Program-made: the position numbers and the translations under genes | DNA from: Escherichia coli 042 | Lineage (GTDB): Bacteria > Pseudomonadota > Gammaproteobacteria > Enterobacterales > Enterobacteriaceae | Reading direction: 5' to 3' (one strand) | Assembly: GCF_000027125.1 (NCBI RefSeq) | Contig: NC_017626.1 | Length of the DNA stretch: 64,000 nt | Notes under the pieces: generated by a model | What the model was told of the DNA's origin: nothing | What the model saw: only the letters and a program-made list of their open reading frames with translations | Databases searched by the model: none | Shown here: positions 49,440-50,613 of the stretch, in pieces | Position numbering within the stretch: position 1 is the first letter of the stretch | How the letters are laid out: every line of letters starts with the position of its first letter

Positions 49440-49670
49440 TCCCCGGAGACATGTTCAGAATGTGCTGCTGAAATATGAGCCTCACTTTAAATTTATTAAA
49501 GTGGTGATGCAGAAACAAGACCAACCCAGGGAGCCGAGTTATGTCATTGATGCCTGAAACCAGAGACGTCAGTCTGTTCCGTCACGGAATAACATCTATG
49601 TCGGAAGGACGAGTGTTACTGCGATATCTGAAGCAACAGGACGACTCTGTTTTTCTCTAGGTTTAACTTC
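49440..49670 (+). pseudogene. Remnant of a tssE 3' end (paralogous to 15500-15706)
   Basis: Translations VLLKYEPHFKFIKVVMQKQDQP and EGRVLLRYLKQQ match the TssE C-terminus of locus A, interrupted by a frameshift/stop. Confidence 0.6.
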
Positions 49671-49728
49671 TTATACAGATGATTATAAGATGAAGTTCTG
49701 GTGAGAAATATTCTATTGTGATTTGACT

Positions 49729-50027
49729 ATGAATCCGTTATTTAACGATATCCAGAGGCGTCTTTTTTGTCTGAATCATCCCCATATTCTTGGTTCTGGA
49801 ATGTTAGGTTCAGAGCTATGGAGGCCGTATATATTGGCAATGATGTTTGTCATATCACTATTACCTGTAATCAGTCTGGATTCCACCTGACAAAGAATGG
49901 CGTGCGTGTATTAACGGAACGTAATATCAGAAGCCTTAATGAACTGTTACCTCTTTTGAGACGACGCTGGGATGTGACGCCGGCAATCATCCTGGCAGTG
50001 GAGTACCTTTTACGTGTATCGGTATAG
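49729..50027 (+). pseudogene. Frameshifted paralog of the small gene at 19707-20015
   Basis: Begins MNPLFNDIQRRLF like the intact copy, then a 1-bp deletion shifts frame; the rest (YSWFWNVRF...ITITCNQSGFHL...) continues in another frame. Confidence 0.65.
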
Positions 50028-50088
50028 CATTGGTTTTCTCCTTAATTAACTATTTTGTCTAATATAACATACTTGATCTGCAGATGAC

Positions 50089-50277
50089 TTGGGCCTGAAA
50101 ACAGGTAGTGATCAGCGATTATTTCTGGGCTATGTATCTCTGTGTAATGAGACTAATAAACTGAGTCATCCGACTGTAGACTGGCATTATGTGGGACACT
50201 CTGCCTGTGTCTATATTTATCTAGCGGTATGGAACTGCAGACGGCAGTCTGGCGCCCCATTTCTTGTATGCATATAA
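50089..50277 (+). pseudogene. Remnant of the 5' end of a tagA-like gene
   Basis: 62-codon ORF (GLKTGSDQ...SHPTVDWHYV) resembles the N-terminus of the 20070 protein, then ends; no full-length gene follows. Confidence 0.5.
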
Positions 50278-50613
50278 CGGGGTTAAGCATCCTGAATGAA
50301 AGAGTGGTCAGTAACACATAACTTTGTTATGTGCCTCTTCGCACTCAAGACTGGAGATAAGAGATAAGAGAGTAACTGCTAGCCTCTGCTGCTTTTGACA
50401 GAAAACTCTCTAAGGTCGTTGAGTGACATATTTGCCCGGCAGGGCTTAAACATAGTAGCAAGGTGACTCTGCCGGAAGTTATGGTAAAGGTATAGGTTGC
50501 CCCGGATGGATAACTATCCTTTACAGAGAGAGGAGGTTTCGTCCTTGGTGATGTTTCCTGCTCAGAGCTTTCCGCATGTGGATTATTTTAATTTTTTCTG
50601 ATGTCGAGGTAAT

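Follow-up and report, generated by a model that had tools for sequence, protein, structure and literature searches.

The 64,000-nucleotide stretch of Escherichia coli 042 (contig NC_017626.1) analysed here, referred to as the window, is 100% identical to positions 848504-912503 of E. coli BR1220 (NZ_CP093068.1) and contains both type VI secretion system (T6SS) clusters of the pheU-type island of enteroaggregative E. coli (EAEC). Locus A is the EAEC Sci-1 cluster, an E. coli T6SS-1 (EC042_4524-4545, EC042_4549 and the TagA gene EC042_4550). The window holds its 3' two-thirds, which encodes VgrG, Tle1, two Tli1 copies, PAAR, TssM, TssA, TssF, TssG, TssJ and TssE, then four genes, and then a 455-amino-acid (aa) protein with ImpA_N and VasL domains. 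Locus B (29076-47443), the Sci-2/aai cluster, has tssH as its last gene. Downstream of this tssH, positions 49003-50574 contain the broken pieces of further T6SS genes. We conclude that this segment of about 1.6 kb is very probably the non-functional fossil of a separate Sci-1-type cluster, long diverged from the Sci-1 of the island itself. The original prediction, which began about 440 bp further downstream, had read the segment as a decayed second copy of the locus A 3' end.

The segment was compared with Sci-1, using as alignment target a composite of the full locus in which the part upstream of the window is designated L003. Five colinear segments across two deletion junctions matched Sci-1 at 63-77% nucleotide identity by segment, with E values as low as 1.4e-95. 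The first part, 49003-49340, aligns with the sequence ahead of sci-1 tssB and with the first 32 codons of this gene (343-column alignment, E = 1.7e-25). It comprises a fossil promoter region at 49003-49243 (+), homologous to the upstream of sci-1 tssB (63% to L003:9135-9378), and a first piece of tssB' at 49244-49340 (+), which is 69% identical in amino acids to residues 1-32 of Sci-1 TssB (tblastn, E = 4e-10). The Prokaryotic Genome Annotation Pipeline (PGAP) independently calls a partial TssB pseudogene at 49244-49339. A second piece of tssB' at 49335-49441 (+) covers approximately codons 95-129 and is 76.9% identical in nucleotides to L003:9661-9766 (E = 1.8e-16), and the TssB profile TIGR03358 recognises the repaired tssB' translation with E = 1.2e-7. 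The two pieces meet at a TTCCGC hexamer that is present at both positions in Sci-1, which points to a 191-bp internal deletion between short repeats.

The tssB'/'tssE junction lies within 49441-49454. The 'tssE remnant at 49447-49660 (+) runs from about codon 75 to the stop codon with one frameshift near 49553. Its reference is the Sci-1 tssE at 15275-15706 (+), annotated by PGAP and matched by TIGR03357 with E = 4e-26. By blastn of the window against itself, 49454-49639 is 70.1% identical to 15505-15688 (E = 3e-14), and residues 75-138 can be read in two frames (tblastn, E = 2.7e-9 and 1.2e-8), as was proposed for a frameshifted TssE C-terminus at 49440-49670. The TIGR03357 profile does not match the fragment, which is too short for it, and the identity of the fragment rests on direct homology. 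The small-gene pseudogene at 49729-50027 (+) is the counterpart of the Sci-1 small gene at 19710-20015 (+), which is EC042_4549 when genes are counted from TssA = EC042_4540. The predicted frameshifted paralog is thus borne out, with 80% amino acid identity over 84 residues and 82% over 17 residues, and with a single 1-bp deletion at about 49779-49780 that is specific to this lineage. From the start of the small gene, 49729-50300 is 71.0% identical to 19710-20303 over 596 columns (E = 2e-79).

The last remnant, tagA' at 50086-50574 (+), corresponds to approximately codons 4-190 of the TagA-like gene of Sci-1 and is 71% and then 66% identical in nucleotides to 20070-20641, with multiple indels and stop codons; several of the stops are in frame in the tblastn alignments. 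The likeness had been thought to end after about 60 codons. In fact it can be followed, through heavy decay, as far as about 50574 (around codon 190) and includes a blastn match of 50382-50494 to 20453-20566 (71.9%, E = 2e-10). The final 124 bp (50451-50574) are 67% identical to Sci-1 tagA (E = 2e-11) and score 51 bits against a maximum of 22.6 in shuffled controls. A search of NCBIfam with the 62-aa open reading frame (ORF) of tagA' found nothing. In the nucleotide alignment against locus A all three of the homologies first noticed are recovered far beyond chance, and the objection that they might be confined to low-complexity stretches fails.

TagA is a class B TssA-like protein composed of ImpA_N, a hydrophobic region and VasL (Santin 2018, Schneider 2019; PMC6745524). 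ImpA_N and VasL occur together in one intact ORF at 20070-21437 and at 51659-52813 of the window, and do not do so in tagA'. The remnant resembles TagA in being homologous to the ImpA_N-containing N-terminal ~190 codons of the Sci-1 protein, but it is truncated, is interrupted by several stops and frameshifts and lacks the VasL part. The reference gene at 20070-21437 (+), EC042_4550 by the same gene count, is an uninterrupted 455-aa ORF with both Pfam domains in the window. In BR1220 and STEC409, PGAP cuts the tagA region into two or three pieces (a partial pseudogene with ImpA_N, a partial annotated as POTRA or hypothetical, and a piece with VasL), a split that looks like an annotation artefact.

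Nothing remains between about codon 129 of tssB and about codon 75 of tssE, and the leftover ORFs are frameshifted. A complete core set (tssA-M, hcp, vgrG, clpV) is therefore absent; in Sci-1 coordinates the gap amounts to ~26.2 kb and includes all other core genes. The arrangement of what is left is that of a Sci-1-type cluster. The tssB gene stands first behind a sci1-type promoter, tssE is the last core gene and is followed by the small gene and tagA, and 49454-50574 is colinear with 15505-15688 plus 19697-20641. The element order is thus the same as in Sci-1 at both ends, whereas the core genes are gone, the remaining genes are broken, the PD-Lambda-1/NERD-UvrD insert of locus A is lacking and the GC content is lower (41.5% against ~50% in Sci-1, with the segments 4-9 GC points below their counterparts). 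Because the promoter and tssB are present in addition to tssE, the small gene and tagA, it is the whole cluster that has collapsed onto its two ends, and the description as a 3' end only has to be given up.

Two origins had been offered for the segment, a fossil of another T6SS locus and an insertion sequence (IS)-mediated partial duplication of the locus A 3' end that decayed in place. The flanking IS copies and the order tssE, small gene, tagA, which mirrors locus A, fit the duplication, but the divergence does not. By the Nei-Gojobori method over 99 codons, the fossil and Sci-1 small genes differ by 1.30 synonymous substitutions per synonymous site (dS) and 0.11 nonsynonymous substitutions per nonsynonymous site (dN), a dN/dS of ~0.085. 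This indicates that most of the divergence was built up while both copies were functional, in a long independent evolution under purifying selection, and not during the neutral decay of a recent copy. Moreover, the fossil is ~70% identical to every sampled E. coli T6SS-1 variant, whereas the variants are ~92% identical to each other; the intact T6SS-1 of STEC409, for example, is 91.7% identical to Sci-1 and the fossil is ~70% identical to both. These two results argue that the fossil is not a duplicate of locus A. The presence of the promoter and tssB from the cluster 5' end, and the lack of the 4-kb defence insert of locus A, also speak against a copied 3' end. Of the two proposed origins the fossil of another T6SS locus therefore stands, and the duplication is effectively refuted.

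Closer relatives of the fossil were sought in several collections. The small-protein family is narrow, with 26 matches of which the named ones are essentially all from Escherichia, and it divides into at least four lineages, the fossil forming its own. A search of 5.8 billion proteins with the repaired small protein gave no intact member above 81% identity apart from variants of the fossil. The search with the TssE fragment returned only fossil variants and one metagenome contig, L016, described below. The scan of GTDB species representatives for the small gene found only E. coli-like contigs, in a metagenome-assembled genome (MAG) labelled Collinsella sp. Map_57_008; the two short contigs L011 and L012 of this MAG are 99.6% (the same fossil) and 93.9% (a Sci-1-type locus) identical to E. 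coli island sequence, and are almost certainly E. coli contamination of the bin. Of 5426 complete E. coli genomes, 43 contain the fossil, each with at least 99% identity and with the same surroundings.

A second lineage of the fossil is provided by L016, an ENA metagenome contig that is colinear with 48996-51192 and 94.8% identical. It shares the internal deletion of tssB, the tssB'/'tssE junction (…LRDLK[S/D]NPRRH…), the truncation of tagA and the junction of tagA' with a 188-aa gene. Its copy of the small gene is unbroken (99 aa), and it preserves 7 bp at the tagA start that are lost in the window. On its right side there is no second IS copy; about 25 bp in common with an enterotoxigenic E. 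coli (ETEC) plasmid are followed by a PerC-like gene. Since the junctions are common to L016 and the window, the collapse and the tagA/188-aa junction are older than the ~5% split of the two lineages and older than the present IS-bounded position. Between the lineages 3.0% of sites differ in the small gene, compared with 6.8% in the other fossil coding segments (Fisher test, p = 0.015). This is modest evidence that the small gene may have outlived the secretion machine for a while.

From the retained ends we infer a history of the following kind. The parent locus would have consisted of a promoter, tssB, the core genes, tssE, the small gene and tagA, with tssE and the small gene adjoining without an insert. 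A single deletion with breakpoints near tssB codon 129 and tssE codon 75 would have taken all core genes, and a second, of 191 bp between the TTCCGC hexamers, would have shortened tssB'. The tagA gene was presumably cut after about codon 190 and joined to the unrelated 188-aa gene, and point frameshifts probably accumulated afterwards. The collapsed relic and the 188-aa gene now lie between two IS1203/IS629-like copies in the spacer between tssH and the TagA-like gene of Sci-2/aai, where they most likely arrived by IS-mediated recombination.

IS copy A at 47586-48893 (+) is a degenerate IS1203/IS629-like element of the IS3 family with inverted repeats TGAAC(T/C)GCCCCGG; it is 95.3% identical to annotated IS1203 copies, contains the Rfam ALIL frameshift pseudoknot at 47920-48035 (116 bits) and is described by PGAP as 'frameshifted; internal stop'. 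In copy B, at 51191-51594 (+), just the two ends of this element are left, 336 bp on the left side (95.8%) and 75 bp on the right (93.3%); ~900 internal bp are gone. The original placement of the segment between a degraded IS3-family element and a deleted copy of it is confirmed by blastn of copy B against copy A, which are in the same orientation. Terminal inverted repeats, the ALIL pseudoknot and ~95% identity to IS1203 assign the element to the IS1203/IS629 group. Neither copy has an intact transposase or a 3-4 bp target-site duplication. Like an IS-bounded composite segment, the block 47586-51594 has two IS copies in the same orientation whose outer termini bound the cargo exactly. Unlike such a segment, one of its copies is frameshifted and the other internally deleted, the outer flanks differ, and the block is found at a single genomic site, in one context in all 43 genomes.

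The block separates the tssH of Sci-2 from the TagA-like gene that belongs to this cluster. In the M18 chromosome and in the CEC15 and M8 plasmids, which carry T6SS-3 clusters ~80-86% identical to Sci-2, tssH is followed by a VasL-domain gene; in M18 this is the next annotated gene after tssH, with ~670 bp between them. Homology to M18 breaks at 47581 and resumes at 51594, that is, at the outer IS ends, and each IS copy joins fossil-context DNA to Sci-2-context DNA. These observations suggest that the fossil entered the Sci-2 spacer by IS-mediated recombination or capture. They provide no empty-site proof of transposition; the best empty-site relatives are ~86% identical (~80% by blastn) and carry 457 bp of unrelated spacer. 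The other course of events that we considered is that a third complete T6SS-1-type cluster once stood downstream of the Sci-2 tssH and decayed in place, the IS copies being later arrivals. In its favour, the island is a graveyard of IS fragments in which T6SS clusters gather, and no target-site duplications mark an insertion. Yet such a cluster would have stood inside another cluster, whose tssH adjoins its own TagA-like gene in the relatives; the M18 homology ends exactly at the outer IS termini; and the same collapsed fossil has a different right neighbour in L016, while its tail occurs on plasmids beside an IS end. Decay in place is accordingly improbable.

The gene to the right of the block, at 51659-52813 (+), encodes an intact 384-aa protein with ImpA_N and VasL domains (Pfam VasL, E = 2.5e-7; ImpA_N, E = 1.1e-5). 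We considered whether it could be the missing C-terminal half of the fossil tagA. It is not, being full length, with its own ImpA_N domain, 25-32% identical in amino acids to Sci-1 TagA and native to Sci-2. It is the Sci-2 cluster's own TagA-like gene and, judged by gene order, would be AaiT; no discussion of it as a TagA homologue was found in the literature. Strain 55989 lacks not only the fossil but also the 188-aa gene and the TagA-like gene. There, the IS1203-like copy after the Sci-2 tssH carries a group II intron (ltrA) and is directly followed by a restriction-enzyme fragment and pic (L013 7755-11242).

The module joined to the tagA' tail spans 50451-51190 (+) and contains the 188-aa ORF at 50614-51180, which by gene order would be AaiS. 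The module is 97.9% identical to plasmid NZ_AP022179.1 and 97.5% identical in L016, and the 188-aa gene differs at 2.5% of sites between the two lineages, compared with 6.8% for the fossil segments (p = 2e-4). The ORF belongs to no NCBIfam or PADLOC family. A weak match to Pfam Peptidase_C80 (E = 0.035) is accompanied by His-Gly and Cys motifs. Together with ~160 bp upstream (50451-50613), the ORF is met again with 95-99% identity, for the most part on plasmids, among them some of the ETEC type that have a T6SS-3 cluster and EatA. Of the fossil, plasmids of the ETEC type retain only the last 124 bp of tagA', next to the 188-aa gene, and in one of them, NZ_AP022179.1, the right end of a similar IS directly abuts the position equivalent to 50451.

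Several observations weigh against our interpretation of the segment and have to be set beside it. The gene order and size of the parent are drawn by analogy with Sci-1, and the searches yielded no intact parent. Nor did they yield the fossil's left flank in a setting without the IS, as L016 begins at 48996 and the seven contigs obtained in a metagenome scan with the junction sequence are all of the window lineage. The intact and less diverged small gene of L016 (3.0% against 6.8%) means that 'entirely non-functional' may not have fitted this gene until recently. The IS end on the plasmid is 92-93% identical to copies A and B, whereas the adjacent module is 97.9% identical, so that the plasmid form is not a simple deletion derivative of this exact copy. 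Finally, target-site duplications are absent from both IS copies, which are flanked by TTT/GAA (copy A) and TAG/CTA (copy B), and the outer flanks TTT and CTA differ; neither a simple composite transposition nor a single-IS recombination is thereby demonstrated.

The residual 86-aa ORF of the small gene, 49767-50027, exactly matches CBG37403.1 of E. coli 042 and BCA70834.1, annotated as 'hypothetical protein AaiR'. AaiR is thus what a frameshift has left of a Sci-1-type accessory gene. By RNA-seq in strain 042, the following are down-regulated when aggR is mutated, and so AggR-activated: the transposase pseudogenes EC042_4578 and EC042_4579A, aaiR/EC042_4580, aaiS/EC042_4581, the transposase pseudogenes EC042_4581A and EC042_4581B, aaiT/EC042_4582 and aaiU/EC042_4583. 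The 135-aa ORF at 53198 is EC042_4583/AaiU. The transcription of aaiR is most simply read-through along with the neighbouring pseudogenes. On the best explanation, the relic is without secretion function and is passively transcribed within the AggR-activated aai unit.

The fossil promoter was inspected in the same context. The best sigma-70-like site in 48800-51700 is TTGAGT-18-TATAAT at 49134-49163, with 10 of 12 matches; promoter-like sites in the region are no commoner than in shuffled sequence. The sci1 promoter has three GATC sites around its -35 and -10 elements, GATC-III and GATC-II flanking them and GATC-I lying with the fur1 box just after the -10, and these form a Fur/Dam switch (PMC3145626). 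In position the fossil -35/-10 pair is homologous to this promoter. Its hexamers are conserved, and between the two fossil lineages a core of 44 bp is invariant. All three GATC sites are absent from the fossil in the alignment, the sequence after the -10 differs (TATAATCGTTTAGGG against TATAATGATCAAAAT), and the fur1 box is not conserved.

We also weighed whether the relic is partly functional. On this reading selection would have kept AaiR, or a conserved fossil promoter that could drive the 188-aa gene, and the AggR regulon would have taken it over. In its favour, L016 still has an unbroken small gene after the collapse, one that is less diverged than the fossil segments beside it (p = 0.015); the two lineages do not differ in the -35/-10 core; the region is AggR-activated in RNA-seq; and the 86-aa ORF is conserved in the 43 complete genomes. 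On the other side, the window copy is frameshifted at codon 18 and has lost the N-terminal helix with the near-invariant residues of the family, and of the nine small-gene substitutions that separate the lineages five are non-synonymous. Read-through accounts for the expression, since the transposase pseudogenes on either side depend on AggR to the same extent; the whole segment is missing in strain 55989, and the frequency of promoter-like sites is that of shuffled sequence. We therefore regard partial function of the relic as unlikely. The same holds, with equally little probability, for the more specific proposal that the small gene stayed under selection after the loss of the core and persists as the AggR-activated AaiR, or that the GATC-less fossil promoter, with its changed fur1-box position, drives AaiS, or both. 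If either were true, parts of an extinct secretion system would have been exapted into the EAEC virulence regulon.

Collapses of a similar kind were found in other genomes. In the THO-010 type, seen in 15 genomes (12 with the full junction and 3 truncated), tssB nucleotide 253 is joined to tssE codon ~74 at 15495, with 93-95% identity to Sci-1 (L005 5019-5464). In ETEC O6:H16 strain 2011EL-1370-2, tssB (9819), a 239-bp tssK fragment (11998-12236) and tssE (15578) are joined and annotated as one 259-aa ORF (L014 3001-3803). Like the fossil, these loci have lost the core, while the promoter, the beginning of tssB and the end of tssE survive. Unlike the fossil, they are 93-98% identical to Sci-1 and are recent Sci-1 derivatives at the native position, not flanked by IS copies within Sci-2. 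The tssB breakpoints differ (9631 in the THO-010 type, 9819 in 2011EL-1370-2 and 9766 in the fossil). Core loss with retention of the ends has recurred in independent events. The tssE breakpoints of the THO-010 type (15495) and of the fossil are within ~10 bp of each other. We do not claim a recombination hot spot in tssE, as three events from a search designed for such loci are compatible with chance.

The fossil also serves, as had been suggested, as an internal comparison for the 15.7-19.7 kb region of locus A. The spacer between tssE and the small gene is 68 bp in the fossil and 66 bp in STEC409, and both are without the block 15707-19709. The short spacer in these two loci indicates that the 4-kb block of locus A is an insertion. 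Besides a hypothetical protein, the block codes for a GIY-YIG protein of the PD-Lambda-1 type (PADLOC, E = 5e-88) and for a NERD+UvrD helicase (PADLOC C3a187, E = 9e-140); it is an anti-phage defence islet inserted in the Sci-1 operon. The defence islet was also seen after the collapsed locus of 2011EL-1370-2.

The segment is an ordinary though unusually legible pseudogene relic, which leaves the understanding of the T6SS unchanged; it is of use chiefly for annotation and for reconstructing the island's past. AaiR, carried as a hypothetical protein of the Aai/Sci-2 system and of the AggR regulon, is the frameshifted relic of a Sci-1-type accessory gene. AaiT would be the Sci-2 TagA-like protein, displaced by a 4-kb IS-bounded insertion. 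For Sci-1 the comparison shows in which direction the 15.7-19.7 kb segment changed: anti-phage defence genes were inserted later into the T6SS operon. The small gene that is conserved between tssE and tagA (EC042_4549 when genes are counted) is a candidate T6SS-1 accessory gene. The relic offers an example of how a T6SS cluster may die, by one deletion from tssB to tssE followed by slow erosion. The EAEC pheU island would then have drawn on three T6SS lineages, not two.

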